A stretch of DNA of 64,000 nt from Eledone cirrhosa. Lineage: Eukaryota. The notes under the pieces are model-generated. The model was not told the origin of the DNA, made no database searches, and was given only the letters and a program-made list of their open reading frames with translations. The stretch covers positions 19,406,001-19,470,000 of the forward strand of contig OZ024746.1 of assembly GCA_964016885.1 (NCBI GenBank). Reading direction: 5' to 3'. A program made the translations under genes and the position numbers. Below are positions 6,883 through 64,000 of the stretch, one piece after another. How positions within the stretch are numbered: position 1 is the stretch's first letter; every line of letters begins with the position of its first letter.

Positions 6883-7150
6883 TATTTAATTAGAAAGTGA
6901 ACAACACAATATATAATTACTCCATAACCAAAGGTTTCAGGACACCTAGACAATAATAACATATGTCTAGGTCGTTCATCAGAAAGAGGGATTAGGGAGC
7001 AACCTAGACATATGTTATTATTGTCTAGGGTCCTGAAACCTTTGGTTATGGAGTAATTATATATTGTGTTGTTCACTTTCTAATTAAATAGCTCTGTTTT
7101 ATACATAGAGCACTCTTTTTCCCTTTGCTTTTTCTTTGGAAATACTTAAC
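6883..7150 (+). mobile_element. Penelope-like pseudo-LTR relic with a ~90-bp inverted duplication
   Basis: Arms 6883-6972 and 7002-7090 are reverse complements with 1 indel. Contains a hammerhead core and a 3' hairpin at 7091-7111. TA/CA-repeat flanks. Confidence 0.6.
6920..6988 (-). ncRNA. Degenerate type I hammerhead motif in a foldback insert
   Basis: Minus strand: CTCTTT-CTGATGA-acga CCTAGACA..TGTCTAGG tgtcct-GAAA-CC ttt GG-TT-ATGGAG. Same family as 16798-16871. GUU site and imperfect stem I. Confidence 0.6.
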
Positions 7151-7558
7151 ACACACACATATATATATTGGAAAATGTGTGAAATCCTTGGTACAGTTAG
7201 GTATATTTAAAAAAAAGGAAAAGAATGACTTTACTTGTAGTTCTAAACAATTTAATTTAATTTTATAATATTATGATTTTACAATTTGGTTTTGTAGATC
7301 TAGTAAGTTCTTTGTTAACTTTGGTAGAGAGATTTTTAAAGATTCCTGGTTAACTTTCCTGGAGAACTTTCTTGCATTCGTCGGTGGCGATTGTCAAACT
7401 GATCTCAGGTTGTGTTGTGATGTGTGACTCTATATATAAGAGTGTGGGAGTGAAGGAATGTTGAAGATTTAAAGGAATTAAAGCATATACATATATACAC
7501 ACACACAACATAATCTGCATGTGTTGGCTGTTCATGTAATTTGATAGGTACTGCAATT

Positions 7559-7981
7559 CTAATGATCAACAATATCAATCCCTACCAACTCAATTCTGCT
7601 TTTGCCTTTTTTCATTTCATTCAATAATTTATACCTTGATTTAATTGTCCTCCAATCAAGAGTTTTCTCTTCATATAGATTTAAATCTAAACCCAGACCT
7701 TTTACATATTCCTTAATACAAGCTTTATACCTTTTATTAGGCTTATGTTGTGGTCTTTTTCCTTGCACAAGACCACCATAAAAGATTTCCTTTGAAATAC
7801 TTGCATCATTCATGTGAACAAGATGGCTTACCCAGAGCACCTGACTCTTAATAACAAGAGAACTGATTGTGGAGTACTCTGATCTTTGTAAAACTTCAGT
7901 GTCAGAGGTCATGCCAAAGGTACTTTTGGTGGAATTATTCAAGTATTTTGAAATGCCATTAGTGAATAGTCCATGTTTCAC
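7559..7981 (-). mobile_element. RTE/BovB-like LINE 3' fragment
   Basis: QVLWVSHLVHMNDASISKEIFYGGLVQGKRPQHKPNKRYKACIK matches the RTE motif LRW.GHV.RM...R.PK..LYGEL..G.R. Confidence 0.75.
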
Positions 7982-9302
7982 ATCTATATAACAAAACTAA
8001 GCACACACGTCTCATACAGTTATTTTTGTCCTTAATGTTATGCCTCTGTCTAACCACACACCCGTTTCACAATTTTCTAAATGCAGTGTTTTGCTGTTTG
8101 TACTTGAAGATGTTATTCTGCATTTAAACTCCCATCCCTTGACAGAGTACAACCCAGATATACAAAAATTATCCACTACTGCCAACCTACACACACCCAC
8201 ACACACATTCATATATATTTAAGCTAACTTTCATGTTTTCTTATTCAATGAATTTGGTGAAATATAACACAAAGTAAATAACATTATAAAAGTTAGAAGA
8301 GAGTTATTTTTTCTTTATGAGTTTATCTACAGCTAGTGCGGTGTGGGGGTGAAGGTGATTATAAAACATCTCTCCCCTTTTCTTTCTTCCATTGCCTAAT
8401 CTTTCTCTCCTTTTCCTCTCATTTATGACATTTACAGTCCTTTCCTTTACAGCCAGATTTACCCTTCTTTATCCCTTCCTTTTTTTTTCATTACTTAATT
8501 TTATTAATATCCTTTTTTTAAAAATATGATCCTTAATTGATTTTCCCCAGAGCTTGGACAGCTATATTTGCAATTTATTTCCCTCACCGATGGAATTCAT
8601 ATCGATATATGATCAAATACAATTATTCATTTATGTATGTTTCCATGATTATAAGAGAAGTTTTATATTATTTTCTCCTAAAAACATAAAGGCCTATTTT
8701 GGGCTTATTTTCGGGGTGATGTCTGTTCAATAAAGACAGAGTATTAAATTTAAAAAAAAAAAAAAAAATTTAGAGCAAGAAATGAAGTTGCTAATAATTG
8801 TTTTGCTTAAACAATAACCTTTTCTTTCAACAGAAATGTTTAATATATATTTTATAATTTATTTTTGAATTAAGATAACATAGCAGTAAGATTTCTGCTA
8901 AAATGTCTACCACTTTTCTCCACAGAATGTAAAGCACTGTCTTTGATTTGATATTTTATTCATTGTTCACTGTCATGTAAAGATAAAAGTCAATCTAAAG
9001 ACGGCTCCACAAAACTCTGTCAAGTAATTGACTAGTCATTAATATCAACAGTGTAAGAAAATAACAAGTTCTTTTAAATTACAAGAAACAGGTCAAAGAT
9101 GGCTTCAACTTTGTTGGTCTGCAGAATGACTATCTACAAGTTTTACAACAACTTCACTTTAATTTTATTGTCATATTAATTTTTACATTTTTTAAATTTT
9201 ATTTTGAATAATAATAATAAAAAAAAGTAGCTTAACATCTCACTGAAATATGATTAGTAGTTGATGGAGAAAACATTGATTCTAGTTGTTGAAACAATAA
9301 TA

Positions 9303-10062
9303 TATTTGTAAGTCACATGTTATTAATAGCTGTCAACTCCTAGTGACAACATGGTGTGTTTGGCTACCAACTCAGGCTTCGCTACTCGCCAGTCTGAAGA
9401 GGGAAAACTGTCCGAGTATCGGCCGCTCTCTGATAGGTTTCTGGTAGAGCTTATGGTAGTGGAAACTTCCGATGTTCTTGACCCCCATCCCTCCCAGACG
9501 ACATTCCTGTTCACTGCTATTAGAGCGGAGATAGTTACCTGCATGTACAAGCCCTGCGAGCTGGAGTGACTGTTCTAACATGTCTCCCTCGTGGTCTTCT
9601 GGGGCAATATCTTCTTTATCCTGTCAGCTGGGACCACAAAGTGGACTAACCCTTAGTTTGTGGTGGTGACATGTGGAATAAATTTACTTTTAGAAGCATG
9701 AGTAGGGAACATATCACTTCCTTATTGTTTAGTTCAACAATGGCGGCAGATTGGCAGAATTGGTAGAGTATCGGGTAACATGCTTTGCAGCATACAGTTA
9801 TGTTCCTGGATGTTCTGAGTTAAAATCTTACCATGGTTACCTTTGCTTTTCATCCTTATGGAGTTGATAAAATAAAATACCAGTAATGCACTGTTGTGGA
9901 TTTAATTGACTTTCACCTCCCCGAAAATTGTTGGCCTTGTGCCTAAATCAGAAACCATTATCGTTTAATTCAATTTGTTAATGCTTTCATGACTGAACAC
10001 TTGCCTTGCCAGTGGTTGAAACTAACAGTTGACAGCTGCTAATAACATGTGACTTACAAATA
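9303..10062. mobile_element. Putative element bounded by 36-bp inverted repeats, with a nested SINE
   Basis: TATTTGTAAGTCACATGTTATTAATAGCTGTCAACT recurs inverted at 10027-10062 with 2 mismatches. The interior 9340-9670 is GC-richer. Confidence 0.5.
9740..9960 (+). mobile_element. SINE family A
   Basis: Family A match with degenerate TSD TTAT(T/C)GTTTA(G/A)TTCAA. Confidence 0.8.
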
Positions 10063-10311
10063 AAGCCAGTTGGACTTAAAGCAACTTTTCTAACACCTGA
10101 GAAAATAATAAAACTAAAATTAAAATATGACCTCTTCAGAAGAATTAATTTTTAGTCTAGAAATATCAAGATAAGAGAAAGAAATATAGCACCTGCAATT
10201 GAGATAAACAAAGTTGATATACTTATTTTATAACTTGATATTCTATATTTCTTTCTCTTATGCTATCATATTAACCTCTTTGATACCAAACTGCATGAAA
10301 CCACTAACTAC

Positions 10312-10342
<31 letters not shown>

Positions 10343-11510
10343 ACATATCAGTTCTACTATACCAAGTTGTTTATTTTAAGTGTTTACATTTGTTTATAAT
10401 CCTTTCATCACAATTTTATATAATAATTTTTATTATGTTCCAAACACCTGCTGAATAAAGAGAAAGTTATATTACTACATCTTTGCAAATTCTTGATTAT
10501 TCTCAAAATTACAGACAGTGCCTTTCATTAGAAATATTGTAAAAATGAGTTAAGTACTATAAAGGTGTTTATGCAGGTGTGGTGAGCTGCATATATTCTA
10601 GCCGTTAGAAAAAGCAAAATGAATGCTTTGCCTTCAAAAGAGGGATGACTCAAAAAAAAGAAGAATATAAAGTATATAATTATATTCTACCATAGTGACT
10701 GCGAAGGTCATAAGATCAAACCTTGTCATAGTTACTGGCTTTGTTTTTAATCTTAACCATTCTCACCTCACTGTTGAGTGATTAACATCCAAAAGTTAAA
10801 AACAAATACTTCAGCAATTGATCTGTAAAATATCCAAATACATAGAAGCCTTCCACTTTTACTGTCATAAGAAAATAATTTGATGTAAAATTTCAGACAT
10901 ACTAATTAAGAATATCATTACAAATGCAACATCAATATTTTAACAGATTGCTGAACTTGTGCTGGATTAGAAATAAATATTTTAACAGATCAAATAGGCC
11001 TGATTGAGACTAACCCTTTAATTACCATTTTTTCTAATGATAGACACTGCCTATGGTTTTCAAAGAATTTTCAAAATCAAGAATTTGAAGGGAATTAGTT
11101 AAACATTGTTTCCTTGGTTCGATTTGACAAGTTCCATCCCACTTAATAAACAAATGAGGGCTGAAATCTTGTTGATCGATTGATAAAAGTGATATAACTA
11201 ACTTTTTCATAATGTATCTGGTGTCTGGAACATAACTTAACAAAGGTTCTCACACAAAAGTATGATGTTAGGTTTTCAGATGTGTGTATCCAGTTTAGAA
11301 TAGGTACATCATATCTGTGTGTGTTATAAAATGTGAAGAAAAGGGTTAGTGTCAGGGGAAGCATCCGTCTGTAAAAAATTACCTTAAAAAAGTCCCCTCC
11401 AACCTATGCCAACATGGAAATAACGACAGCAATGATCATGACGACAACAATAACATTTTAAAATAAACATTTTTATAAACAAAGAAGCCGATCTTTCTAA
11501 CTTTGCTAAG

Positions 11511-11690
11511 AATATAAAGAATGGTGTGCTCGTGTGCAGAGGTGCTATAAAATAGGGTGAAGACCCTTAAAAGACGGAAGTTACCATTGGCTGCTGGCAA
11601 CTCATTTTTCCATCTTTTAAGGGTGTTAACCCTATTTTATAAGCTATTTTATCACATCTCTGCACATGAGCACATCATTCATTATATTAA
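11511..11690. mobile_element. Foldback MITE (family of 3 copies)
   Basis: AATATAAAGAATGGTGTGCTC..TATAAAATAGGGT..CCCTTAAAAGA is mirrored at the right end. Copies at ~17561-17715 and a partial copy at ~35790-35890. Confidence 0.7.
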
Positions 11691-12549
11691 ACAATTTTGA
11701 ATTGTAAAACCAGGGATGATTTCAAGTGGTTTGGTATCAAATAGGTAAAAACATCACAAGATAAAACAATACATGACAATTAACTGATGATCATGCTTCC
11801 TGCAAAGATGAACTGTATCATATTACATGATTTATTTACAGTTAAGTGCATGGGAGCATTGGGGTTAACAATCACAAGCCTTTGCCATTGATACAGTGTT
11901 TGATAGACTTGGCAAGGTTAACTCCACAAGTAAACCACTCTATTCTTTAAACTTTTAACTATGCTTGTCGATGTGTTTTAATATCCCACAGGAGTGAAAT
12001 TAATGTATTAATGTAGATATTTTCTAATTCAATGTTCAATGGTCAGTAACTTAAAAGACATTAATGGTTTAGTGTTTCTATGGTAAATAATTAACGAGAG
12101 GTGACAAAATAATTACATAGCAAAGTGTTTTTTTTTTATCTTTTATTGACTTCATATTTCTTTAACAGACATCCTACCGTCCTAGCTGACCTCCATCCTA
12201 GCTGACCACCATCCTAGCTGACCACCATCCCACCCCACCCACCATCCCAGCCACCCACCTAACCATTACTTGTTTACATCATTATTTAAGTTTGTTACAT
12301 TTCATTCTCACAGCATGACATATACAAATAAATCAATAAGTGACACTAATACCTATAAATGATTGATACTAATATATTATTAATATGTTGATTAATTACT
12401 TATCACTTTATCAATAAATAACATCATATTACATCAACTCCGCCACCCTAATATCTAATACATTCTCAATAAAAACAACAACAATCTAGGAATGGTTCGG
12501 AAATTTATTAGTAAAGCAATAAAAAGAAAGGCATTGAACTGATATTGAT

Positions 12550-12786
12550 AATGGTTTCTGGTTTAGACACAAAGCCAACAATTTTTGGGGACGGGGAAAA
12601 TTGATTAAATTGATCCAGTGCATTACAGGTTATTTATTTATTTATTTTATCCCCCCACCTCCTCCCATAAGAATAAAAGGCAAAGCTAACCTCAGCAGGA
12701 TTTGAACTCAGACTGTAAAGAGACGTAACTATATGCCACAAAGCATGTTGTCCGACGCTCTACCGATACTGCCAATTCACTGCCCT
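12550..12786 (-). mobile_element. SINE family A
   Basis: Family A match with degenerate TSD TTGAACT(G/A)ATATT(G/A)ATAAT. Confidence 0.8.
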
Positions 12787-15159
12787 TGAACTAATATTAA
12801 TAATAGTTGTTGTGAAAATATCAATATGTTACATTAAAAACTATTATCTGAAAGTAGAATGTTAGTTAATGGCAGAAGCGGCAATGATACATATCAAAGA
12901 GCCACTTACTGATTTACTTACTCTCACTAATTTAGTACATTCATTTCAAAATAGATACCATGGAAATAAGATTTACAGCTATAAACAGAAGAAACACACT
13001 ATGATATACAAATAATGTAATAGTTGGTAGTAGTGCTGAACTTAAGTCTTCTTATGAGCAAAATCTGCAACTGACTAGTGTCCTATCCAAGAGGATAAAT
13101 AACTAACTAATAACACCTCATGTATGGTATGGTCCCATAACTTATGACAGAAGTGCTGTAGTGACATACAGCATTTCTTGGGGCATGCTTTTAAAGCCTA
13201 GCAGAGCCCATCCATCTCTCAGTCTGAACGCAGTAGATTTCTCCCATAGAAGGATAAAGAGTGAGAAAGAAGAAATGAGAAAGAGATATAGAAGAAGAAT
13301 TGTCCCTAGTACTAGGCTGGTACTTTTTTTTTATTGACCTCAAAAGGATGAAAGGCAAAGTTGACCTGAGCAGGATTTAAATCCAGAGAGCAGAGAGCCA
13401 GAACAAATACCATAAAGCATTCTATCTGATGTTCTAACAAGTCTGTCAATTCACCGCTTCACACATCTACAATATTTCCAGTTAAATTGCAGTGAATAAA
13501 AGGAAATAAATTAGGGTTATACTGGAGTAGCATAAAATGAAGTGTTTTGCTCAAGAACACAACACACAACCGAGTCCAGGAATCAAACCCACATTATAAT
13601 CATAAATCCAACACCCTTACTAATAAGCCACATCAATAACTTCATAACTCAACAACAGCCCCCTGCTATTTTAAAACTATTTCATCAACATAAAATAATA
13701 TCTGTTATGCTTTATTAAACTAAAGGGTGATTTTTTTCTTTTCTTTTTTTTCTTTTCTTTTGAATGCTAGAGATATACACCTGTAAGTATATTGAGCGTC
13801 ACATCAAAGCAGACCGGAAAGAAAAAGATTTCATTTGGCAAATAATGCAAATTATAGAATTATAGAATGCTTCCATATTTTTTCACTGAACCAAGAAATC
13901 TTTTCAACTAAGTATTTTTTCATGTGTTATTAGTTATGGTTGTAGATATTTATTGGAAAGGCTATAATTGATAAACCATTAAAACAGTCTTAAGAACAAT
14001 ATAAGCCACTTCTCACCTAACACAGACGATGTGTAGAGCTATTGTGCTATTACGGTAACAATTATAAGCCTATAAAAGCAATAAAACCAACGTGGCAACT
14101 TTTTTGAGAATGACAACAGACTATAAAAATAATTATAGATATAAAAGCATGCATTGTAGGGTGGCAGGAGGACGTCATGTATTTAATATAGTGAGTTGAA
14201 AATCTTTGATTAACTGAGATTATTCATGAAATTAGTAGTCAGAAACTCACTAAAAACAACAGGAAAAGGACACAACTCAAATAAATATTCTTAGCCTTGC
14301 ATTGAAATAATTTTGTGTTTATAGCATTTAAAGAGAGCATATTGTTAGTAATTACAATTATTTAGCTGTTAGCCCTATATATTCCCTCTAGATGTTATAG
14401 CTAAAAAACTATTTTACAGCATGACTAGAAATCATTTCATTTTAAACTAGTGATGCATGCATGCATGGTCCTGCAACTCCTGGGGGGAATCGTAAGGGTG
14501 CTGTATTGATATGCAGCATTTCTAGGACATTTTAAAACCCTATCTCCTCTCCAAGTCTGAATACAGCAGATTTTTTTCCAGAGAAGGATAGAGAGTGAGA
14601 GAATGGATGAAAAACAAATTTGAACTCAGTGGGATTTGAGCTCAAAGGGCAGAGAGCTGGAAGGAATACCACAAAGCATTCTATACAATGTTTTAAACTC
14701 TGCCAATTTGCTGCCCTAGACTAGAGATGTAGTTTACATAATGATTCAAATTTCATATCTATATCCTTAGTTTCTATTGTAAGAACAATTTAATTTAACC
14801 AGTTAAGTTTTCAACAATAAATCCAGCTTTAAAACAGAATCTTAAACTCATTATCTGCTTGTAACTCTAATAAATTAAACAGCCAGCCATTGTCAGGGCA
14901 AATCAGGTTTTTACATGACTATAAAAGAACCTGCAACTAACTCAGTCATGATAATTGAATATCGGCCAGCTCTATCATTGACTAACAGTATTACTTTGAA
15001 AGGGATGGGCTTTGCCCAGTCATGTATGCTCTAGTTACATTCAAACCATGATGAACAACAAGCAATATTTTCTATCAACTAGAAAAGACATGGGCTGGCT
15101 TAGCCATAACCACACCTGTTATTGTATGTCAAGATGAAAGTATAAAACATTGACAAGAT

Positions 15160-15162
<3 letters not shown>

Positions 15163-15236
<74 letters not shown>
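15163..15236. repeat. (GT)n microsatellite
   Basis: Uninterrupted GT run. Many (TA)n, (GA)n and (CA)n tracts occur elsewhere in the window. Confidence 0.95.
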
Positions 15237-15239
<3 letters not shown>

Positions 15240-16390
15240 CGCGTGTGCGTATGTGTCTGTAGAAGAGCATAAATTGAACATTTAGTGGTGTCTCACTACC
15301 CTCAGGTTATGTCACTACAGTTCATTGTTCTCAGAATTTTAGAAACTGAATAAATATCTTACAGTGATAGGGATATTACTTTACACTGAGTTGAAATCCT
15401 ACAGAGGTTTGACTTTGGATTGGCAGTATCAGTAGAGCATCAGACATGCTTTGTGGCATACAGTTACATCCCTTTACGTTCTCAGTTCAAATCCTGCCAA
15501 AATTAGCTTTACCTTTCATGCTTACAGGGTTGATAAAATAAAGTACTAGTAATGCACAAAATTGTTGGCCTAATATCTAAATAAGAAACCATTATTTAGA
15601 CCTTGGGAATCATTAAAATAAGTAATATATTGAATTTGATTGAAGTCTATCCTCCTCTCTTACAAATAATTATCATTCTTAATAATAATTATCATTCTTA
15701 ATTCTTATAAGAGCAAGGAAGTATTTAGTCTGTGTCTCTATTTACTCTGTTCAAATATGGCAGGTACAAATTTGCCTCTCATAACTAGGGTCAAGTCAAT
15801 CAAATATAATCCTCACCACAGCAGCAATGTTGTCCAAGTGAAAGACAAAGTCCAATAACTCTTTTCTTCCCTTGATATATATATATATATATATATATAT
15901 AATGGGTAGACCAAGAAAAACCTGGGACGAGGTGATAAAAACCTGACCTTGCTCACTTACATCTCTCTAAGACAATGACACTGGATCGAAACCTTTGGCG
16001 CCATGCAGTTGTACAGAAGACACGACTGCCATTGCATACAAACCTACAGTCAGTAGGGACCTCTTAACCCAATGTATACCCCACCCCACACCCTACGCCA
16101 TCCTCCCTTTTCCGTTCCGTCCACTGTGTCGATGACACAACAGTCCATACTGTAAGGTGGCCATGTAGGAGACACGGCGAAAAGGCTCCCAGTCCACACT
16201 GTAAATGTGGTTGGTGTTAGGAAGGGCATCCAGCTGTAAATAAACCTGCCAGAGACACTTCTGTGCAAGCGACACACAGTCTCCCGACCAATCCCGCATC
16301 AAATGGAACAAAACCGTCTAACCCATGCTACCGTGGGATGGACGTTTCACGATGATGATGATGATTACATATATGTATATATATATATAT

Positions 16391-16558
16391 AGGAACAAGT
16401 AAGACCCCGACGACTGAGCTCAAGCCGTTTAGCCGTCGAAACGGCTTGAGCTCAGCCGTCGGGTCTTACTTGTTCCTATTACCCACTCTACTACCCTAAG
16501 TATTGAGTACTTTGGTGCGTTATGGTCCACCTGGTTCCTTACCACATTTCCTTCGTTA
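16391..16558 (+). mobile_element. Penelope-like foldback relic between (TA)n tracts
   Basis: ~40-bp inverted arms (16391-16430 and 16439-16478) containing a hammerhead 3' half (GAAACGGCT..AGCCGTC). The tail is shared with 53002-53075. Confidence 0.55.
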
Positions 16559-16594
16559 TATATATATATATATATATATACATACACACACACA

Positions 16595-16667
16595 GTGTCT
16601 CAAAAGTCACTATCTATTTTGAATAGTAATAAGTACACCAAAATAGATAGTAACTTTTGAGACACCC
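16595..16667. mobile_element. Tiny Tc1/mariner-type MITE
   Basis: GTGTCTCAAAAGTCACTATCTATTTTG / CAAAATAGATAGTAACTTTTGAGACAC form inverted arms of 27 bp with 1 mismatch. Confidence 0.65.
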
Positions 16668-16797
16668 TTTATTTCTCTCTCTCTTTATATATATATATAA
16701 GTGTTGAAGTTTCCGTTGAAAAAGTCAGAGGAATGAAGAGTGCTCTATGTAAGTTACAGAGCTAAATATTTAATGTATAATAAATAATACAATATAA

Positions 16798-16868
16798 TTA
16801 CCTCATTACCAGAGGTTTCCTGAATAAGACGGATACAAGAAACGTCCTCATTCGTTCATCAGGCAAGG

Positions 16869-16871
<3 letters not shown>
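16798..16871 (-). ncRNA. Type I hammerhead motif
   Basis: Minus strand: TTGCCTTGC-CTGATGA-ac GAATGAGGACG..CGTCTTATTC ag-GAAA-CC tct GG-TA-ATGAGGTAA. Stem I has wobbles and a C.A mismatch at the core-proximal pair. Confidence 0.7.
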
Positions 16872-16900
<29 letters not shown>

Positions 16901-16922
16901 TGCCTTGTCTGATGAACGAATG

Positions 16923-17065
16923 ATCATTTCTGAAGATGGCATATATAAGTGAAGGTATGTATATCCCCTCTGATAATTTGTAATATTTTTTTACATAGAT
17001 CTATCTTTAATATGATATACATACCAACACACACATATATATCCCAGAAACGATCGTAAAATGAT
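16923..17065 (+). ncRNA. Type I hammerhead motif with a ~110-nt stem II and palindromic stem III
   Basis: ATCATTT-CTGAAGA (16930-36)...GAAA (17047-50)-CGATCG-TA-AAATGAT. 7-bp stem I. Stem II includes TGG/CCA and the perfect 12-bp pair GGTATGTATATC (16954-65)/GATATACATACC (17014-25). Confidence 0.7.
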
Positions 17066-18587: not shown

Positions 18588-18620
<33 letters not shown>

Positions 18621-30902: not shown

Positions 30903-32188
30903 CAGGGTGTGGACGATATTTATTCGCAATTTTCAACTGCTAATTTTATGCAAATTTTTTTTACTTCCGTTGTCACTCTTGTCTTCATAAAAACAGTGAC
31001 TATATTTCCATTATTTATTTTCAGAATAATTGATTATGAATAATTTTGAACCTCCAAATTTGTGGAAGAGACACGGAGTTCTTCTTGGAATCTGAGGAAA
31101 TTTCAGACTTTCTCAGCGTCAGCAGGAGAATGGTGGAAAGGGTCAGAAAGGAATTGGAAGATTCAGGATTCTACTACGAAGCAACATCAGCGAGGAAAAC
31201 ACATGATCGACGATCTGACACCCTCAGAATGCCCGAGTTCGTCGCTGAAGTTCAGGATCATCAACAATGAACCTAGCAAGTCGATGCGTGCCATTGCAAG
31301 GGAGAAAGGCATGGATGAAAAGCTCATTAGGCTGGTGGTACATGAAGACATTCGCTACGTTTCATACAAGATGAGGAAAGGACAATTTCTGTCAAAGGCG
31401 ATGCAAGAAAAGCGACTGAAACACGCAAAGAAGCTGATCAACAAGTTGAAACACCCACTGGAGCCAGACATGCTGTGGTTTTTCTCCGACAGGAAAAACT
31501 TCTGCCAAGACCAGATGATAAACTCCCAGAACAACAGGTGGCTCGCTGTCTCATCAAAGACGTGCCCAGACTCATGCAGACAAAGTTTCCAGCGACAACA
31601 TTGGTCTTAGGTGTCGTCAGCAGTCAAGGTGACATCATGCCACCTCACTTCTTCCCTGAGGGCCTCAAGCTGAACACCGATGGCTACATCCGCGTTCTGA
31701 GCTAGGTAGTAAAGCCCTGGATCGACCAGGTAGCTGCAGGTAGGCTGTACGTGTGGCAGCAAGACTCAGCGCCCTGCCATACCAGCCGAAAGACCCAAGC
31801 CTGGCTGTCAGAGAACTTCTTCGACCATACTTCACCTGACATCTGGCCTTCCAGCTCGCCTGACTGCAACCTCCTCGACTTCTTTTGTGGGGCGCAGTGG
31901 AATGAGACACCAACAGATCTAGCTGCAATACGAAAGATGATCTGAAGGCCAGGATCACAAGTGCCTTTAGGGGCCTAAGTCGGGGGACAGTGACGAAGGC
32001 CTGTAGCCGGTTCCGAGGCCGCCTTGAGGCCGTCATCAAAGCCAATGGCGGGTTTATCGAATGAGATCGAAAGAACAAGTCATGAAGACAAACTGACCCA
32101 AGTTTGATAAATATATCTTAAAAAATAAAACTACTGTGTTATTTTTTCCTAGACAGTAATCTTGCGAACAAATATCGTCCGCACCCTG
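30903..32188 (+). mobile_element. Full-length Tc1/mariner-superfamily transposon, DD37D (maT) type
   Basis: 27-bp TIRs with 2 mismatches (CAGGGTGTGGACGATATTTATTCGCAA and its complement ending at 32188). TA on both sides (30901-02, 32189-90). Internal transposase remnants. Confidence 0.95.
31046..32063 (+). pseudogene. Disrupted DD37D transposase
   Basis: Consecutive ORF pieces give an HTH-like segment (SMRAIAREKG), WFFSDRKNF, LGVVSSQGDIMPPHFF and WQQDSAPCH...WPSSSPDCNLLDF, with 37 residues between the second and third Asp. About 3 frameshifts and an in-frame TAG at 31703. Confidence 0.92.
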
Positions 32189-39044: not shown

Positions 39045-39291
39045 TCTGTGTCACAGAGGAGACTGAGGTTAGCTGGACATGCTCACCGACATCCAGAGTT
39101 GACATTGCACTCAGTGCTCCTGTGGGAGCCCCTACATGGACACACTGGAAGAGGAAGACCAAGGTTAACGTATGTTGATGCCCTAAGGACAGACACTGGT
39201 CTGTTGGAGACACAAGACATGGCAGCGATAATGAGGGACAGAGACCGCTGGAGAGAACTCATCCATGGATCTCGGGAATTTTACCCGCCCT

Positions 39292-39293
<2 letters not shown>
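39045..39293 (+). mobile_element. RTE-like LINE 3' end between (TA)n tracts
   Basis: RRLRLAGHAHRHPE..LLWEP..GRGRPRLTYVD. A near-identical inverted copy is at 48387-48652. Confidence 0.8.
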
Positions 39294-39325
<32 letters not shown>

Positions 39326-48077: not shown

Positions 48078-48142
<65 letters not shown>

Positions 48143-48346
48143 GAAGTATTTCCGTAGGAAGCTTAGTAAAATCGAAGCTTTGGCTGTGGCCAAGCTAACG
48201 ACCTACAATTAGGAATGTACAACAAAGCACTCAATAAGGTTGTAGGTCTTAGAGTAATAACATACGCTTAGACAGCTTGACAAATTGGAAATTGCAGCAG
48301 GTAAACCTAGCCACACAATACCAAAACAACGAAAAAACTAATCAGG

Positions 48347-48386
<40 letters not shown>

Positions 48387-48650
48387 AATGCGGGTAAAAT
48401 TCCCGAGATCCATGGACGAGTTCTCTCCAGCGGTCTCTGTCCCTCATTATCGCTGCCATGTCCTGCGTCTCCAACAGACCAGTGTCTGTCCTTAGGGCAT
48501 CAACATACGTTAACCTTGGTCTTCCTCTTCTAGTGTGTCCATGTAGGTAGGGGCTCCCAAAGGAGCACTGAGTACAATGTCAACTCTGGATGTCGGTGAG
48601 CATGTCCAGCTAACCTCAGTCTCCTCTGTGTCACTTTTGAGCTGACTTTT

Positions 48651-48767: not shown

Positions 48768-48823
48768 GGATCATCTGATGAACCTAAAAATACAAAGTAG
48801 TGGAAACTCCAGAGTAACGAGAC
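48768..48823 (+). ncRNA. Degenerate hammerhead motif, same family as 56557-56611
   Basis: CTGATGA at 48775-81 and an identical GAAACTCCAGAGTA core half. Stems I and II are eroded. Confidence 0.5.
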
Positions 48824-49159
48824 TCAAATTTGGCCTCAAGAAAGAAAATATGAATCCCTACTCTGGTATTGAGCACTAAGCATATATACACACGCACACA
48901 TACACATTTACTTTATTGAACTATTATGAATACAAAGGTTATCCCAAATAATACTATAATTCTAATTCCCGGGAATCTTTCTATCTTTATGTTAAAACAT
49001 GAAATATGAAAATCAAAATCTCTCTGATTCATCCAGGACGTTGCGTAAACACGCGTTAGAAATAGTGTTCTCACCGTGGCTTGTATTTATCGGGGGTAAC
49101 CACAATAAGTGAAGAACTCAATACATTAGTAGAGCACATGCAAAATTTAATATAGAAAT

Positions 49160-49211
49160 GGCTTCTACAGGAGTGGAACTGTTTCATTCGAAATAAATCA
49201 TCAGGAAAGCT
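49160..49211 (-). ncRNA. Type I hammerhead motif, same family as 62520-62574
   Basis: Minus strand: GCTTTC-CTGATGA-tttatttcgaat-GAAA-CAG ttccactc CTG-TA-GAAGCC. Confidence 0.62.
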
Positions 49212-49387: not shown

Positions 49388-49428
49388 CTAATTTCTGATG
49401 AACGACTAGCGTCCGAAACGTTAAGACC
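49388..49428 (+). ncRNA. Minimal hammerhead motif (GAAACGTT type)
   Basis: TTT-CTGATGA-ac GAC tagc GTC c-GAAACGTT-AAG. Palindromic AACGTT replaces stem III and stem I is weak. The downstream tail (49440-49510) recurs inverted at ~19510-19580. Confidence 0.55.
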
Positions 49429-53001: not shown

Positions 53002-53127
53002 AACGAAGGAAGTGTGGTAAGGAATCAGCTGGACCATAACGCACCAGAGTACTCGATACTATGGGTAGTAGGAGTTCAGAACTAGCTGTCGAAATGGCCG
53101 GAGCTCAGTCGTCGTCGGGGTCCTGAC
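53002..53127 (-). mobile_element. Second copy of the 16391-16558 family, with an internal inversion
   Basis: 53002-53075 is the reverse complement of the 16485-16558 tail. It is followed by GTCGAAATGGCCGGAGCTCAGTCGTC in the opposite orientation. Microsatellite flanks. Confidence 0.6.
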
Positions 53128-55052: not shown

Positions 55053-55232
55053 GGGCGGTGGATTGGCAGTATCAGTAGAGGGTCGGATGCCATGCTTTGA
55101 CGCATAGAGTTATGGCCCTTGCCATTCTGAGTTCAAATCCCGCCGAGGTTAACTTTGCCTTTCATCCTTACAGGGTCGATAAAATAAAGTACACTGGGCA
55201 ATTGCTGGCCTTGTGCCAAAAGTAGAAACAAT
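55053..55232 (+). mobile_element. SINE family A copy inserted in an RTE relic
   Basis: Near-identical to 46445-46632. 16-bp TSD ATTAATTAGCCATACT. Confidence 0.88.
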
Positions 55233-56556
55233 TAATTAGCCATACTATCCATGTCAGGCTTCTTCAACTTGCAGGTCATGTCATGAGTAGCAACGAATCT
55301 ACTACAAAACTTTTACTATGGGAGATCACTAACGTGAAATGCAAACACTGAAGACCTCTCAGGACATTAAAGAGAACCATTGAGGAAGATACAGAATTAT
55401 CTGGTGAAGAACTGAGGCAATTAATGATGGATTGTGTGAGATGGAAAGGTTTTATCATGTCACTGCAAAGAAATGGATGGTGGTGGTAGTAGATGAAGCC
55501 GAGAATCTGTTGTGAACTTGAGGGTTCTAGTTTTGTGTTGTTCATGTTCAGGAGGAATTGTGTCATTGTGTTGAATACTTGGTTGTAGAATATTAATAAG
55601 GAATGGAGAGCAATATCATCTGCATAGCAGAACGCATTGTTGCATGTGAGGCAGAGTATGAGGTGGGGCAAAACTAAACCTTGAACATACTAGAGATGAT
55701 CAAGTGTTGGTGAAAGAGAATTCTAGTGGCATATACCTTGAATTCCAAAGACTAGAGGCAGGTAGAAGGCATAAGTAAGTAACTTTGCCAAGAAATTCAT
55801 AGTAATGGTTGATTGATTTGACGATGTAAGTGCCACAACACTGTTTTCACCAATTTTCTCAAGGGTGAGAACCCATAGGTGAGTACCAGCAGTAGCTGGG
55901 GAGTTAATCCTGTGACAGACTGGCTTCCTGTCCAGGGATAGTCTTGTACACTCAGTCACTTAATGCCAAGGAAACCAGAGATACGCACCAGCCCGATGGG
56001 CCTTCAGCTTAGAACAGACATGGTCAGACCGTCAGTGACTAAACCAGCAACCCTACCAACCTTGCTTGGTGAGGAAAGTGATTTCTGGACACCCTGTGGG
56101 ATGAAAAACAAAACCCATCAAAGGGTGGAAGAACTCAGATGAGTCAACCAATAGTGTGTAAAAAACAAAACAAAAAAAGAATGGGTAGACCAAGTTCATT
56201 AGCCTTGGTTGGCAGTCTGTCTAGAAGGATGACTGATTTCAAAACTGGAGTAGATGGGACTACATAATCACCTTGGTGACAACCTTTCAAGTGGCTAATG
56301 GCTTCATTCTTGTGATGAAAGTAGATGAGCTGTGGCTTAGTAGCCAGCTTCCAAGTAATGGTCAGACAAGGATTTGGGACCCACTGGCATCACTTTCTCC
56401 CCAATGAAAATTATAACCAGGATGGGAAGAGAGAAATATATGTAATGTAGTGACAGTGGTTATTATATCAACAATATAGATGATGCAAAATACCTCAGGA
56501 GAGCATTCTATAGTAGTCCAATCCAGGACCTTCTCACTCCTGTTGGAGGAACCCCA

Positions 56557-56611
56557 GGTCTTGTCTGATGATCCTGTGAGTGCACAGGTGAAACTCCAGA
56601 GTAAGAAGACT
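56557..56611 (+). ncRNA. Type I hammerhead motif with minimal stem III
   Basis: GGTCTTGT-CTGATGA-t CCTGTG agtg CACAGG t-GAAA-CTC ca GAG-TA-AGAAGACT. Stem I 7/8 paired, 6-bp stem II. Confidence 0.75.
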
Positions 56612-56702
56612 TACCACTTAGCTATAATAAAGAATATTTAAACTCTACTTTGGTACTGAGTGTCCATTCTTACGTCCGTCAACAATATATGAACATATAT
56701 AT

Positions 56703-57090
56703 ATAATTGTTTCTACTTTTGGCACAAGGCCAGCAATTATCCCAGTGCATTACTGGTACTTTATTTGATCGACCCTGTAAGGATGAAAGGCAAAGTTAAC
56801 CTCGGCGGGATTTGAACTCAGACCATAAAGGGCCGTAACTCTATGCTGCAAAGCATAGCATCTGACTCTCTACTGATACTGCCAATATAATTGTTTCTAC
56901 TTTTGGCACAAGGCCAGCAATTATCCCAGTGTATTACTGGTACTTTATTTTATCGACCCCTTAAGGATGAAAGGCAAAGTTAACCTCGGCGGGTTTTGAA
57001 CTCAGTCCGTAAAGGGACGTAACTGTGCTGCAAAGCATGGCGTCCGACCCTCTACTGATACTGCCAATCCACCTCTACTGATACTGCCAA
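56703..57090 (-). mobile_element. Head-to-tail SINE family A dimer plus a partial third head
   Basis: Two consecutive ~184-bp copies, each beginning ATAATTGTTTCTACTTTTGGCAC on the plus strand. Confidence 0.85.
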
Positions 57091-57656
57091 TATAATAGCA
57101 TATATATATATATACACATACATGGATTTCCCTAAAATCTTTAGTTTGTGTCTCAGCATGTTAATCTATTGAACCTCAAGAATCAGATGACATAAGACTT
57201 AGTTGACAGGTAATATGGCATATTGAAATAAAACTCATCCATCAGGACAAATACTGTGGTACTAAAAGTAAATGTGGTGAGAGTGTTTGGCAATCAGAGA
57301 ACTCTTCAATTTGGCTGAACATACGACAACCATTCTAGCGCTGGTGCCATGATATGATATGTGCACCCAGTCCACTCAGTAAGGTGGTAGAATTGGTGTC
57401 ACGATAAAATGCACCCAGTCCACACAGTAAGGTGATAGTGCTGGTGTCCCAATAAACACATCCAGTATACTCTGTAAGGGAGTCAGCATTAAAAAGGGTA
57501 TCCACCTGTAGAAACCATAGCAAATATGAAATACAACAAGCAAGATTGGTTACTCTGACCTAACTGATCTCAAACCATGACAACTTATCCAACCCATGCT
57601 AGTGTGGAAAGCAGGTGAAAAATGATGGCTTTATATATATATACATATATATATAA

Positions 57657-57830
57657 ATGGAGGCACATGGCTTAGTGGTTAGAGCATTGGCCTTGCAATC
57701 GAAAGGTTGTGAGTTCAATTCTCAGACCGGGTGATGTGTTGTTTCCTTAAGCAAGGCACTTTATTTCACATTGCTCCAGTTTACTCAGCTGTAGAAATGA
57801 GATGATAGGGACTGGGGTCCATATCATTCC
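57657..57830 (+). mobile_element. SINE family B (tRNA head, CORE/Meta-like domain)
   Basis: TGGCTTAGTGGTTAGAGC A box, GAGTTCAATTC B box, then TGTGTTGTTTCCTTAAGCAAGGCACTTTATTTCACATTGCTCCAG. Relatives at ~5408, ~13510(-), ~20722, ~27170(-), ~37505 and ~38880(-). Confidence 0.8.
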
Positions 57831-58169
57831 ACTGCAAAGTGGTCGTGGAGGTGCCACAGGAAAAAAGCACCCAGCACTCACTGAAAATGAGGTTGGTGTT
57901 AGGAAGGGCATCCAGCTGTAGAAATCAAGCCAAAATCAGTTCCCGTCCCACCCTTGCAAGCAGGGAAAAAGCGGACGTAAAATGAAATGATGATAAAATG
58001 ATGATATTGCACAGTGTAACGTAGTTGGTGTGAGGAAGGGCATCCAGCTGAGGAAACCAAGCCAAAATACAGAACCTGACTTGAATTGTCTCATGTGACA
58101 ACCCATCTAAGCCATCAAACATGGAAAATGGATCTATGATGATGATGATGATCATGATAGATATGTATA

Positions 58170-58650
58170 TATGGAAAAAGTTCAGGGAGCTACTACCTCT
58201 GCTGTCTACAAAAGATTTTTCCCTAAAAAATGAAAGGCATTGTATGAATGTATGAATAGCAATATTGCATGGGAATGAGACCTAGGCAGTATGTACAGTT
58301 GACCTATGAAGATTGGAAAGAAATGAAGCTTGCATGCTTCAATATATGTGTAATAGTGTGCATGAACAGCGAAGCATTAATGATCTGAGAGAGAAACTAA
58401 GCATAAGAGGGGTCAGATGTAGTGTATATGAGAGGAGATTGCAGTGGTTTGGACATGTGATGTACATGAAGGGTGAGAGCTGCATAAAATGGTGCAGGGC
58501 ACTCAAAGTTGAAGGAAACTATGGATGAGGAAGACCTAGAAAAGCTGACCTTGCACAATTAAACCTCACAAAGGAGATGACACAGAGTCGAGATCTCTGG
58601 CATCATGCTGTACTACAGAAGATCCACTTTCCCATGGGCACAAAATGAAA
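58170..58650 (+). mobile_element. RTE-clade LINE fragment
   Basis: ERRLQWFGHVMYM..ALKVEG. Same family as 3335-3649. Confidence 0.78.
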
Positions 58651-60594
58651 TGAAATGAATCAAACACACCAATCTTCTCATCACACCTCACCTTACCCAA
58701 ATTATAAAATCAAGGTAGAATTATATTTTGACTGAGCTTCATTAAGTGGAGCAGGACAAAACAACAAAGATGGACAGTCCCCTTTCCTCAGTCAACCTCT
58801 GGAAATCACTACAGTTTTGGTGCATTAGGGTTGATAGCATTCATTCCAGTGTACATTAAGTCACAACAAAACAGATAGAGAATGGTGTGTGAGGACTTAG
58901 CCAAAGGGAGAAAAAATATAGTGAGAGAAAGAGAGAGGGGGAGAGTTATAAAATCCAACAATCATTTAAAAAGTTCTATACTTTTAAATATCTTGAGAGA
59001 AACTATGTTTAAAAAGTTGTATCAATTAATGATCAGAAAAGGTTCTAAAGTGGTTGGTGATAGGAAGGGCATCCAGCCATAGGAAGTTTGCCATACAAAG
59101 GGTAGAGAGAATCCTTCAGTTTGTGTCAAGGACATGACAACCTCCCTAGTGCTTATGATCTATACAATAAACACACCCAGTACATGCTGTAAACTGGTTG
59201 GTCAAAAACATGACAACTTCTGTACACTCAACAGAATGTATGACCATACATAAGCGAGGAGCAGACCCCTCGGCTTATCTGGGAGGCCAGTAGCCCCGCT
59301 TCAGTACTGACTTGGTCTATGTAGACTCGCCCAACCCTTTCTAGCAGGGAAAGCAGATGACGATGTTGATGAAATATACTCACGCATTACAGTTTGTAAA
59401 GTTGAACTGTTCATATCAACAACACACTTTCACCTGCTGAGACCCTAAGGTATATGAAATTTGAAGCCCATCTCTAAAAAATTTTTTTTATCATTATACA
59501 TAATTATTATGCTTTATAATAATTGTTTCTACTTTTTGGCACAAGGCCAGCAATTACCCAGTGCATTACTGGTACTTTATTTTATTGACCCTGTAAGGAT
59601 GAAAGGCAAAGTTAACCTCGGCGGAATTTGAACTCAGATCATAAAGGGACGTAACTATACTTCAAAGCATGGTGTCCAACTCTCTACCGATACTGCCAAT
59701 CCACAAAGAATAAATAATATATATATCATCATTGTTTAACATCCATCTTCCACACTAACATAGGTTAGACTATATATAATTTTTGATGATTTAGTGTTAA
59801 AGAATAAAAGCTAATGATAAAATAAAATAACATTTTTAAAAATGAGGCGCCCCTGGGCATGTGTACCCTAAGCTATAGTTAATAGGTAAGTCCAGCACTG
59901 TTAGAAGTCAGTTTTTTAAGAACTCATAAACACTGTGTTTATGCATGCATTTTTCTTCTTCTTAATTTAGAGTTTATTTTGATTAGCCACTTGCTCAGTG
60001 GGAAGGTTGTAAAAAAAAAGGGGGGGGGGGCCTTGGTCTTTCTATCTTCCGTTAATTTTTAAGGTCTTGCAGATTTTTGTAGTTCCAAATATTGTGACCA
60101 TCAGTAGCTTATGAATTAAAATACTACATTCTTTCTCCAAGAATCCAAATTCAGCAAAACTTTGAATTAGGCAGGTTGGTAGGTATATATTCTCTAGGTC
60201 CAATAATAATTGATATAAAGTTGAAGGTATATTTTAGGTAATGGATTTGTAAATTCTTCAATTGTCCATAGATATTTTTCTTCTGCACACTGTAAGGTAG
60301 TCCATGTTGGTGACAATAAAAAGCGCCCAGTCCAAACTGTAAGGTGGTTGTGATGGTGACAACAAAAAGTGCTCAGTCTACCCTGTAAGGAGGTTGTGCT
60401 GATGACACACTAAAAAACACCCAGACCACACTGCAACGTGGTTGGTGTTAGGAAGGGCTGTAGAAAATACCAAAATACAGATCTGTATGAGCAAGACATG
60501 GTCTCTGGACCTGACTTGGCTCATAACACGACAACCTATCTAAATCACGCAAGCATGAAAAATGGATGTTAAATGATGATGATGATTGATGTCA

Positions 60595-61535
60595 TGTGGG
60601 CAGCTGATTTTCACAACAAAGCATGCTTTTATTCTGGTAACCCAAACTACAATATCAAGTTGCTTATGTTTTTATTCTCAGGTTACAGCCATTGGTTACA
60701 ATATATTCATCCCTATCTGTTATTTCTGTCTACCTTAGTGTATTTCAGTTTGTTCTGGCTACCACACCATATCTCAAGTGAAGGCAATAATGTGGCCTAC
60801 ATTTGTTGTCAACTGATGGCTTCTTTCTTTTGTGTAGTAGCGGGTGGAGATTTCTTGCTCCTGAGTTGCATGGAGGTATCATTTAAGTGTAATTCTAAAG
60901 TCTGTCTCAAGTCTAAGTGTTGAATAGAATGTTCCAGTGTCTTTGAAGAGTGATCTATTTTTGCTTATATTTCATGTTTCTCCTCAAGTTCATTGGCTTT
61001 CTCACTAACGTTATTTTTGTATTTGCAAACTTGGGTGAAACGGCTGCTGACTCATTTTCTGTGCTGAAGATGTTGTTTCAGTGATACAATCTAGGTCGTG
61101 TATGATATGATACAGATTTAAGGTCACAGCCACCCTCTTTGTGTGGGAAATATAGTCTGTACACATCTTCATTGATAATGAAATTTCTAGTAACACTGAG
61201 TAGCTTACAAGTTCTTATATTCCTTTAGTTGAGTTCTTGTAGTGACCAGTTCAGAATGCCCAAATATAGGCATTAGAATAGGTACTGCAAAGGTGTTGTA
61301 AGTGATATACTTGTTGTTGGCTGAGAGCTCTGATGATAATATTGTTTTTGACTCTCTTAAAATAAGTCCACCATACTCGACCTTTTCATCCTGTCTAAGA
61401 TACCTGTAGCTGTCACCTGTCTCTAGAGGTTGCATTATCAATTGGCCTAGTTTTCATAGTGGGGGAGACATAATTTTTCTACATTTTACCACCCAACATG
61501 TACTTTTCATTCGACAAATTTCATTCCAATATCTG
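60595..61535 (-). mobile_element. Decayed non-LTR retrotransposon with restriction-like endonuclease (R4/Dong-like)
   Basis: Minus-strand peptides YRYL..SELSANNKYITYNTFAVPILMP (post-RT region) and LDIVVWVTRIKACFVVKISCPHD (remnant of the REL PD..E motif). Confidence 0.65.
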
Positions 61536-61968
61536 TGGAAAAGCGAGTCGGTATGCATGTACGTACACCTGCACCTATGTATGCATGGTCCCGTAATTCC
61601 CGAGGGGATCGTAGGGGCGTCATATTTTTAACCTGGCGGAGCCTACCCTCACCAGGTCTGAATTCAGCACATTTCTTCCAGAGAAGGATAAAGAAAGTTA
61701 GAATTAAAAATACAATCCAGTACTTGACTGCTACTTTTTTTTATCAACCTCAAATGGATGAAAGGCAATCCTATGGTGTAAATGCTAGGTTATTTAAAAA
61801 AAAAAAAAGTTATGTATTTTGTAATAATTTAAATCAAAACACATCGAGCCTTTTTATTTAAAGAACCATGTAAAAAATATATATATAATAGTAACAATGG
61901 TATAGATAGAGGGTAACACAGACTAGCTACGCCTCTGACTATCGAATATATATGTGGTCATGTGTGTG

Positions 61969-62013
<45 letters not shown>

Positions 62014-62459
62014 CATATTTTCGAAAGATAACATACGCTAAAAAAAAAAACACAACACTACTGCTATTCGCGATGTTTAAATATAAATTAAACAGTATCA
62101 ATGAAAATTGTTTTAAAACAAACTTAATTTAATTTGCAACGGACCACAATTTAGTGGATTAACAATAGAGGAGATATTAAATGTGCTGTCATGCTGAAGC
62201 AGTTGGGTCTTAACAATAACAAAAGTTGGTCGACGATCAATGACATCTAATTAAAAGACACTCATGGGATGAGTGTTGTAGTTCAGATAAGCTAGCAGCT
62301 TGCTAGAAAAAGGGGGAATCCCTACTGATGACAATTTCGAAACCAATTCATATAGAGAGAGCAATATACACACTCATACCTACACACACCATTTAAGTTA
62401 TCTTTTGCAGTCACACACACACACACGTACATATATATATATATATATATATTTATTTA

Positions 62460-62659
62460 TTTATTTTATAGAAGGAGCTTCTACAGGACTAGTACTGTTT
62501 CATTCAGATGAAATCTTCAGGAGCTTCCTGAAGATTTCATCTGAATGAAACAGTACTAGTCCTGTAGAAGCTCCTTCTATAAAATAAAAAAATGTTTACT
62601 CTGCCATGTATTGAGTACCTTACTTACTGTGGTTATCCCCGACTCAACCCGGGACCAAC

Positions 62660-62660
<1 letters not shown>
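62460..62660 (+). mobile_element. Penelope-like relic with a perfect 63-bp foldback
   Basis: 62460-62522 pairs with 62526-62588 around a 3-nt loop. Hammerhead in the right arm, tail related to 49075-49160, (TA)n on both sides. Confidence 0.65.
62520..62574 (+). ncRNA. Type I hammerhead ribozyme motif (best-formed copy)
   Basis: GGAGCTTC-CTGAAGA-t TTC atct GAA t-GAAA-CAG tactagtc CTG-TA-GAAGCTCC. Perfect 8-bp stem I, 4-bp stem III, GUA site after 62566. Confidence 0.8.
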
Positions 62661-62694
<34 letters not shown>

Positions 62695-63126
62695 GGAATA
62701 CTGTTGGCTTCTTGCTACAATACTTTCTATACCTTTCATTCATTTATATATATGTAAATGGTAGCACAGTGGTCCGGATAACCAAAGATGTGGGTTCGAC
62801 TCCCATGTACGTCAATACTCATCTTTTTCCATTTCTCCGAGGGTTCTTAACCCCACTATCAGGCTAAATAATTTCTTTAATTTCTTTAGTCAAAATACGG
62901 CGATAGCTTACATTTCTAATAATTTCAAACCAACTCGCTGTTTCGAAAATATTCTTACTATATATATATATTTATAACTCTATTACACGCACCCTCTCTA
63001 TTGTTTATATTATGTTATCTCCTGTTCTCAATATTAGGGTATAAATATTGAGTTTTGCCATAAGTTAATCACTACCTTGACTGAATCTTAACCATCTACT
63101 ATGTAAGGGTATGTCATGTATCCTTT

Positions 63127-63193
63127 TATTTTATCTGATGAGGACGTACTGTTGAACTTAACTCAGTACCTCTGAAATATGTATAATAAAATA
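63127..63193 (+). ncRNA. Type I hammerhead motif (AT-rich family)
   Basis: TATTTTAT-CTGATGA-ggac GTACTG..CAGTAC ctct-GAAA-TA tg TA-TA-ATAAAATA. Perfect 8-bp stem I, AUA site. Confidence 0.68.
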
Positions 63194-63310
63194 TAATTGA
63201 TCACAAGAATATCTATTTTGTTAATATTTTGAATTTAAAAAAAATATATATATATATATATATATATACGATATATTAACAAATGGAAACTATATTTATA
63301 AAACCATATT

Positions 63311-63377
63311 TATTTCATGATACATATATTTCAAGGACACTAAGTCAAATTATGGTGCGCTTTCATCAGATAAAATA
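63311..63377 (-). ncRNA. Type I hammerhead motif (AT-rich family)
   Basis: Minus strand: TATTTTAT-CTGATGA-AAG c GCAC..GTGT c CTT-GAAA-TA tatg TA-TC-ATGAAATA. 8-bp stem I, AUC site. Confidence 0.68.
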
Positions 63378-64000
63378 TAATATAGATCAGTTTTATAAAT
63401 AAATATTGACATATCCTTGAAATATGTATAATGAAATAAATATGGTTTTATAAATATAGTTTCCATTTGTTAATATATCTTATTTTTACTCCAATAATTT
63501 GTTGAGTGCTTTATATCAGTTATAAAAATATTTGCTTGTTGTATCCCAACAATTTAAATAGAACTTCTACATATATATATATATATATATATCCCAAGTA
63601 CCGAGTCCCCTGCTGAATAATGGTCTTACTAGTTTAAAACTGGTAATCCTGAACGTAGAATATATATATACATATATATATTCTACGTTCACCAACTTCA
63701 TCTTCGTGTGTCTGAGACATTCATAATCAAAAAGCCAGGCAAAATATAATTATGGAGAGAATCAGCAGTCCACAGACAGGGGGCAAACACGCTGTTGTCG
63801 CCGGTATAAACACGATTCTCAAAGGAGTTAACACACAACTGCCAAGTGACAAACTTCCCTCATTTCTTCCAAACGTAATTGCTAAGGCAGACACCTTGCC
63901 TCAGCTAGACAGATAAACCAACAGAATTCAACGTTTCTATACGAGGGATAAAGAGAATATAGCGAAACAAGAATACATCTTAACTGTTGTTTATTTGTTA

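Follow-up and report, generated by a model that had tools for sequence, protein, structure and literature searches.

Paired bulged hairpins near the ends of Hydra-clade Penelope-like retrotransposons and their likely role in starting reverse transcription

Penelope-like elements (PLEs) are the closest relatives of telomerase reverse transcriptases (RTs); they choose internal start sites and form a tail and mirror-image ends. The Hydra clade of PLEs is defined by the RT motif RWK or RWR and by the change of DKG to DKT, and its members have a CxCX5C motif, a C-terminal GIY-YIG endonuclease, and a canonical hammerhead ribozyme; they insert into (TA)n, form partial tandems, leave truncated copies in inverted orientation, and carry a tail on one side (Craig et al. 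2021, PMC8557442); the words "hairpin" and "stem-loop" are absent from the main text of that paper. Here we analyze inserts with such properties in a stretch of 64,000 nucleotides from Eledone cirrhosa (GenBank assembly GCA_964016885.1, contig OZ024746.1, positions 19,406,001 to 19,470,000 of the forward strand), hereafter the window. Near their ends lies a short bulged hairpin, a real, clade-wide, paired and apparently undescribed cis-element of a known retrotransposon clade. We suggest that the hairpin likely binds the RT-endonuclease of the element, and that each hairpin probably has a start of reverse transcription a few bases to its 5' side. We found no description of the motif in the literature searched, which included neither the 21 Hydra entries of Repbase nor Arkhipova 2006; these could mention it.

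Two other systems are close to the one considered here. In Poseidon_Ac of Anolis (Frangieh et al. 2024, PMC11167929), a single in vitro study found two internal RT starts that bound the tail, within a stem-loop, and did not find their signal. Two internal starts that bound a tail, and a stem-loop beyond the hammerhead on which initiation depends, are also what we propose for our elements. However, in Poseidon_Ac both starts fall in a single AC-rich stem-loop located in the open reading frame (ORF), whereas here there are two non-coding copies of the motif, each lying 3' of an end; the letters of Fig. S1 in that paper, as read by us, contain no RCTC...GAGY. Non-LTR retrozymes, the non-autonomous PLE derivatives, spread hammerhead-bearing pieces of the pseudo-long terminal repeat (pLTR) without a protein (bioRxiv 10.64898/2026.07.22.740005; hammerheads, PMC4209133). 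No downstream hairpin is described in the consulted part of the retrozyme paper (bioRxiv 10.64898/2026.07.22.740005), and the majority of the inserts in the window consist of truncated ends or fold-backs, unlike the tandem arrays of retrozymes.

The initial annotation of the window had pointed to ten hairpins of the form RCTC-GAGY, and all ten were found where it placed them. They belong to seven families, A (48860 and 56642), B (63488), C (16742), C1 (7091), D (16485 and 53051), E (49116 and 62598), and F (48229), and most of them follow a type I hammerhead and lie inside (TA)n. The motif is real, but the pattern as originally written is too loose and is its own reverse complement. It has 64 matches in the window on both strands, compared to 35.9 +/- 8.5 (maximum 58) in 60 local dinucleotide shuffles of the window, and thus about half of the matches are due to chance. 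A tighter form consists of RCTC, an inner stem, a loop, the partner of the inner stem, a two-nucleotide 3' bulge (UH), GAGY, and RCUNU. The original description did not include the inner stem, its bulge, RCUNU on the 3' side, or a second hairpin, nor did it name the elements; the ATT-like bases that it noted before the 3' stem are the last base of the inner stem followed by the bulge.

A strict descriptor of the bulged hairpin, tuned on the window sites that it recovers, has nine matches in the window against 0.5 in shuffles. Seven of them are among the ten sites and two (39099 and 48583) fall in an unrelated repeat, whose inverted pair of copies, 97% identical (39081-39324 and 48354-48601), produces false matches to the hairpin pattern. 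The remaining three sites are worn copies, with a shortened inner stem at 48860, TCT after the stem at 49116, and a one-nucleotide insertion at 53051. In a 664-kb sample not selected for the motif (the window, 200 kb of its flank, and 40 scattered 10-kb pieces), the descriptor has 104 matches compared to 9.9 +/- 3.6 in 12 shuffles. Neither of the two outcomes that the initial annotation named as refuting, an equal frequency in random AT-rich intronic windows or plain common descent without excess conservation, was obtained. Forty-two matches come from one minisatellite; the other 62 include 42 in eight repeat families distinguished by the inner sequence, five in an unrelated repeat, and 15 unassigned. 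The minisatellite (L049:8900-10000 and L050:1-240, minus strand) has an 18-nt unit that fits the descriptor with a one-nucleotide bulge. Isolated hairpins fold weakly, with z below -2 in only two of the ten window sites. An Rfam covariance scan of the window with E up to 1 yielded 66 matches; none of them reached its gathering score or lay at any of the ten sites, and we rejected them as microsatellite-driven noise. Hydra-clade elements are abundant here (the 42 family matches in 664 kb) and have no Rfam model, and the motif offers an easy way to mark their ends.

Judging by sequence, the window inserts are ends of PLEs, and families B, C, and D trace to Hydra-clade ORFs. Family C has a single ORF with the RT and the C-terminal GIY-YIG endonuclease (L076 and L119), the RT motifs being RWK and DKT. 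Inspection by eye (L076:1414-2037 and L119) also showed the CxCX5C linker, an endonuclease without CCHH, and CxxC and CxH near the C-terminus. For families B and D, the N-terminus of the ORF and the RT were identified (RWR in B, RWR and DKT in D). Intact frames are present in family C or D, of about 720 aa or within 3.5-kb tandems. The read-through relatives of family B (L241-L269) contain a second hairpin (hairpin 2, as opposed to the first, hairpin 1) followed by a Hydra-type ORF, and in family D (L409-L412) such an ORF also follows hairpin 2. In one more family, G, found starting from the ORF, a hairpin is located 6 nt after the short end. The hammerhead lies in the pLTR, with CTGANGA...GAAA cores in A, B, C, C1, and E and a U3-A8 variant core in D; a canonical hammerhead was not found near family F. 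Insertion into (TA)n, inverted truncated copies, and the one-sided tail are all present in these inserts. The Pfam search on six ORF fragments gave no match. No ORF-linked read-through copy of A, C1, E, or F was found with genome-wide hairpin 2 patterns, which gave scattered or nested matches only, and these families are provisionally placed with the Hydra clade by the motif, the ends, and the hammerhead form. Two candidates resembling read-through copies with a second hairpin, L002 for family A and L124 for family E, were dropped as single-copy.

The second hairpin is not a peculiarity of this genome. The best 80 of 495 confirmed metagenome matches gave 78 Hydra-type loci, which formed 62 families after merging at 80% identity; in 45 of these the ORF is preceded by 100 nt or more, and its last 150 upstream nucleotides were scanned. 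Two copies of the hairpin were found in 26 families, one in 14, and none in five, compared to 2 of 438 windows from ORF interiors and 3 of 45 reverse strands of the same untranslated regions. By eye, several of the single-hairpin cases are truncated at a contig end, interrupted by an insertion, or show a one-base variant. The spacing between the hairpins is 54-82 nt in the metagenome families, 76 nt in family C, and 93 nt in family B, and so the tails are longer than the 30-40 bp given in the text of PMC8557442. Hairpin 2 precedes the ORF start by 19-38 nt in 32 of 40 metagenome cases. Read-through copies demonstrate that it starts 2 nt (family C) or 4 nt (family B) after the position of the tail end. 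For family D its existence was predicted beforehand, and a genome-wide pattern located it at 298 positions, 3 nt beyond the tail end, with none for the reversed control. In families C and D and in the metagenome families both hairpins are upstream of the start codon. The motif was also seen by eye in four of six published Hydra consensus sequences (PMC8557442, File S7), the four being from coral, sea cucumber, and sea louse: it is present in Hydra-2_Amil and Hydra-2_Ajap, has two copies in Hydra-1_Ajap, and in Hydra-1_Crog is represented by one copy with a mismatch and one with GCCC/GGGC. Thus the motif is usually paired, non-coding, located between the hammerhead and the start codon, and clade-wide, independently of this genome.

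The positions where copies end follow these hairpins. Fourteen of the 17 mappable ends of terminal metagenome copies, located through the ORF with seven contig ends and six read-throughs set aside, are 0-12 nt 5' of hairpin 1 or hairpin 2. The ends in E. cirrhosa are bimodal. Among 39 ends of family C, mapped from anchors about 40 nt upstream by dynamic programming, which carried on through AT-rich sequence to (TA)n and overlooked the short family D ends, 16 are at or before hairpin 1, 18 are two bases before hairpin 2, two are read-throughs, and three lie between the hairpins. Exact matching of 296 anchored copies from eight families produced 118 that pass hairpin 1, 117 that give way to simple repeats between -12 and +1, and 61 unclassified; of 54 copies anchored at the B or C tail end, 27 read through, 22 stop at -9 to 0, and five are unclassified. 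The ends are scattered over about 12 nt, in AT-rich patches similar to the (TA)n target. The distance from a hairpin to the downstream end, for which the initial annotation proposed a test of constancy, is not fixed, but that from each end to the following hairpin is. Finally, the 61 head-to-head pairs comprise 55 of a long and a short arm, with one hairpin-bearing arm, six with two short arms, and none with two long arms.

The structure was considered using 66 metagenome hairpins picked by sequence, without the use of pairing. The inner length varies from 8 to 26 nt, and the bulge letters are TT in 41 cases, TC in 13, TA in 11, and AG in one. If the bulge is set at 2 nt, the first inner pair is formed in 65 of 66 hairpins (C-G in 45, U-A in 19), compared to 2, 0, and 13 for a bulge of 0, 1, or 3 nt. 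Inner pairs 1 to 3 are formed in 65/66, 49/66, and 41/60 cases, whereas the shuffle means are 51.8, 27.8, and 22.8. For hairpin 1 alone, the first inner pair is formed in all 31 cases (U-A 18, C-G 13) against a shuffle mean of 23.5 and maximum of 28, and its U-A or C-G state changes six times on the tree, at least three changes being forced by well-supported branches (a quick tree of 34 protein rows with neither an outside reference nor a root). The first bulge base is U in 98% of hairpins and the fifth base after the stem in 97%; both are outside the search pattern, and the columns flanking the hairpin are only 27-62% conserved. The excess conservation that the initial annotation had asked for is thus present. 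In E. cirrhosa, the outer stem is often ACTC/GAGT instead of GCTC/GAGC.

Under target-primed copying, the 3' end of an inserted retroelement copy is the start of cDNA synthesis. As most copies end a few nucleotides before one of the hairpins, the hairpin likely marks the start of copying for this telomerase-related enzyme. The protein would bind the hairpin on the sense RNA, and the endonuclease would nick the (TA)n target; the nick could then prime on AU-rich bases immediately 5' of the hairpin held by the protein, and the hairpin itself would remain uncopied. A start at hairpin 1 would yield a tail-less short end, and a start at hairpin 2 would yield an end with hairpin 1 and the spacer, which corresponds to the optional tail already known. 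If the two target strands each received a different one of these starts, the result would be the head-to-head fold-backs with a short and a long arm. The suggestion of the initial annotation that the motif is a cis signal such as an RT recognition or priming site fits both the end mapping and the clade-wide conservation. Similarly, the RTs of long interspersed nuclear elements (LINEs) recognize 3' stem-loops, as in eel UnaL2/UnaSINE1 and the R2 3' untranslated region, and telomerase has template-positioning helices; in both of these systems a small structured RNA bound by the RT fixes the start of copying. The LINE stem-loops, however, are upstream of the start and are copied, whereas the hairpins described here are downstream of the putative start, not copied from it, and paired. 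A bolder proposal, which we make only tentatively and consider somewhat doubtful, is that two hairpins about 65 nt apart hold both active sites of a dimeric, telomerase-related RT on one RNA, so that priming takes place on both nicked target strands, with one start in front of each hairpin. If true, this dimer rule would join the Penelope tail, head-to-head pLTRs, and internal initiation, and the hairpin of about 25 nt would be a portable "start here" tag. A short, covarying, paired motif that occurs across animal phyla and is tied to both ends makes exact mutants testable.

A number of observations weigh against the role of the hairpin as the start signal. Three of the 17 metagenome ends are elsewhere, at -27, -65, and -86. 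The counts from this genome under-sample far-upstream ends due to queries and anchors placed 5-40 nt before the hairpin (6 nt in D), and microhomology with (TA)n blurs the ends by a few bases. Copies of family F continue into the hairpin at 210 places, against two that stop short of it; the family ends about 70 nt past the hairpin, and genome-wide patterns found no hairpin 2 in it, nor any hairpin 2 read-through copy for A, C1, and E. By eye, there is no clear copy in the Hydra-1_Obim and Hydra-1_Amil consensus sequences of PMC8557442. The outer stem is nearly invariant (GCTC/GAGC in 65 of 66 metagenome hairpins) and, as it hardly varies, carries no covariation signal in that set; in some copies of family A the first pair of this stem is mismatched (A-C). 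As to the strand, G-U was counted 13 times and A-C six times, and among the 66 hairpins UUCG or GNRA loops occur four times in the sense and once in the antisense orientation; neither count decides between the strands. Lastly, a non-Hydra family, labeled as Neptune/Nematis-type from motifs by eye, has 24 distinct ends in 30 loci (19 short, three long, and two read-through), the two ends being 58 nt apart, and in this one family the motif is absent from the 58-nt tail; thus tails do not require the motif. This family (L370-L399) is very young, with at least 150 near-identical endonuclease matches, and its core starts with TTGACGA.

The main alternative, which is rather unlikely, is that the hairpins act in single-stranded DNA, so that the GIY-YIG endonuclease recognizes them in the cDNA or an intermediate, cuts the adjoining TA-rich patch, and trims the ends. 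The covariation does not distinguish RNA from DNA, and the AT-rich patches at the ends do resemble the (TA)n target; moreover, Craig et al. ascribed the tail to endonuclease resolution (PMC8557442), and the D. virilis endonuclease needs the tail for recognition, as cited in PMC11167929. However, the tail borders in Anolis are RT start sites in vitro (PMC11167929). A double-stranded palindrome is a weak variant: the eighth base of GAGCACTC is C in just 52%, and the 5' GCTC is at a variable distance and accompanied by a paired inner stem.

We consider it quite improbable that the hairpins are instead signals of the 5' leader that serve translation, feedback control, or RNA processing, with the RNA cut beside them to form the template's 3' terminus. 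The short and fairly even distance from hairpin 2 to the ORF start agrees with such a role, and hammerhead cleavage would presumably leave an uncapped RNA with both hairpins; yet the absence of head-to-head pairs with two long arms would stay unexplained, and a scatter of ends over about 12 nt that tracks AT patches is unlike a fixed nuclease cut. A leader function is compatible with a start signal rather than exclusive of it.

The initial annotation had also offered a tertiary partner of the ribozyme. Such a role, or that of a switch acting on the hammerhead, for example through a strand swap with an ACUC/GAGU stem III, is very improbable: stem III is indeed ACTC/GAGT in family A and in some published Hydra hammerheads, and the hairpin is located 42-67 nt after the ribozyme, but stem III has nine forms in 36 families, with ACTC in seven, while the hairpin is fixed throughout, there are two hairpins per ribozyme, and family F lacks a canonical hammerhead nearby. 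Chance, plain descent, or coding constraint (ATT-GAG-YAC, I-E-H/Y) is hardly credible, despite the commonness of the loose pattern and the overlap of the tail with the ORF start in other Penelope clades (PMC11167929), given that the flanking columns are unconserved, that both copies precede the start codon, excluding coding constraint, and that the variable inner length does not keep a reading frame; the splice-site reading was rejected as well.

Returning to the window, its ten sites are likely the first hairpins carried in long ends, family F being uncertain, and none of the ten reads through to hairpin 2. The features are as follows.

6934..6982, minus: type I hammerhead core, short (tail-less) arm of the C1 fold-back
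7091..7116, plus: hairpin 1 and ACTCT, family C1, long arm of the fold-back insertion at ~6883-7150
16485..16513, plus: hairpin 1, family D, fold-back at ~16392-16556
16737..16762, minus: hairpin 1, family C, tail to ~16700; same family as the coding element in L076/L119
16815..16862, minus: type I hammerhead core, family C
48224..48255, minus: bulged hairpin, family F, in a TA-bounded piece at ~48140-48348; exception to the end rule
48775..48807, plus: hammerhead core, family A
48860..48874, plus: worn hairpin 1, family A, inner stem shortened
49116..49135, minus: hairpin 1, family E, long arm of a fold-back
49181-49204, minus: hammerhead core, family E fold-back
53046..53075, minus: worn hairpin 1, family D, tail to ~52998; inverted pair (I25) with 16488-16584
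56565..56608, plus: type I hammerhead, family A, from the core to the predicted cleavage triplet
56642..56661, plus: hairpin 1, family A (strict descriptor)
62497-62520, minus, and 62528-62551, plus: mirror hammerhead cores, family E fold-back
62598..62621, plus: hairpin 1, family E, long arm of the fold-back at ~62460-62660
63328-63369, minus: hammerhead core, short arm of the family B fold-back
63488..63512, plus: hairpin 1, family B, long arm of the fold-back at ~63268-63570

The mirror arm of the C1 fold-back reaches only to the hairpin base, and in the family D insert at 16485 the tail ends 3 nt before the position occupied by hairpin 2 in full copies. Further hammerhead cores at 49395-49419, 62325-62343, and 63135-63178 have no hairpin behind them; they may belong to short-end copies or to other clades.

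The family D hammerhead (L409, ~1330-1430 on the element strand; window 16392-16475) combines the U3-A8 core with a very long stem II and a long stem III, and many fold-backs of this family turn inside the ribozyme. At G000:C2:356030060-356031899, seven read-through matches of family D are spaced 299 nt apart, forming a short, retrozyme-like tandem array with the tail end and hairpin 2; other matches about 3.54 kb apart represent full-length tandems. Family F (window 48140-48348; L278 and L284) is non-coding and occurs head-to-tail in L284, with a unit of about 650 nt. About 250 nt upstream of its hairpin lies a degenerate fold resembling a hammerhead, and the family has related subfamilies with other inner stems (L049, L054, and L086). 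Family F and the short D tandems may be of the retrozyme kind.

Penelope-like families are often nested in the (TA)n tracts of one another, for instance in L133, L182, L239, and L389 and at 63100-63570 of the window. Outside these inserts, the window contains at 31050-31607 (plus strand) a 186-aa frame that we take to resemble a fragment of a Tc1/mariner transposase.

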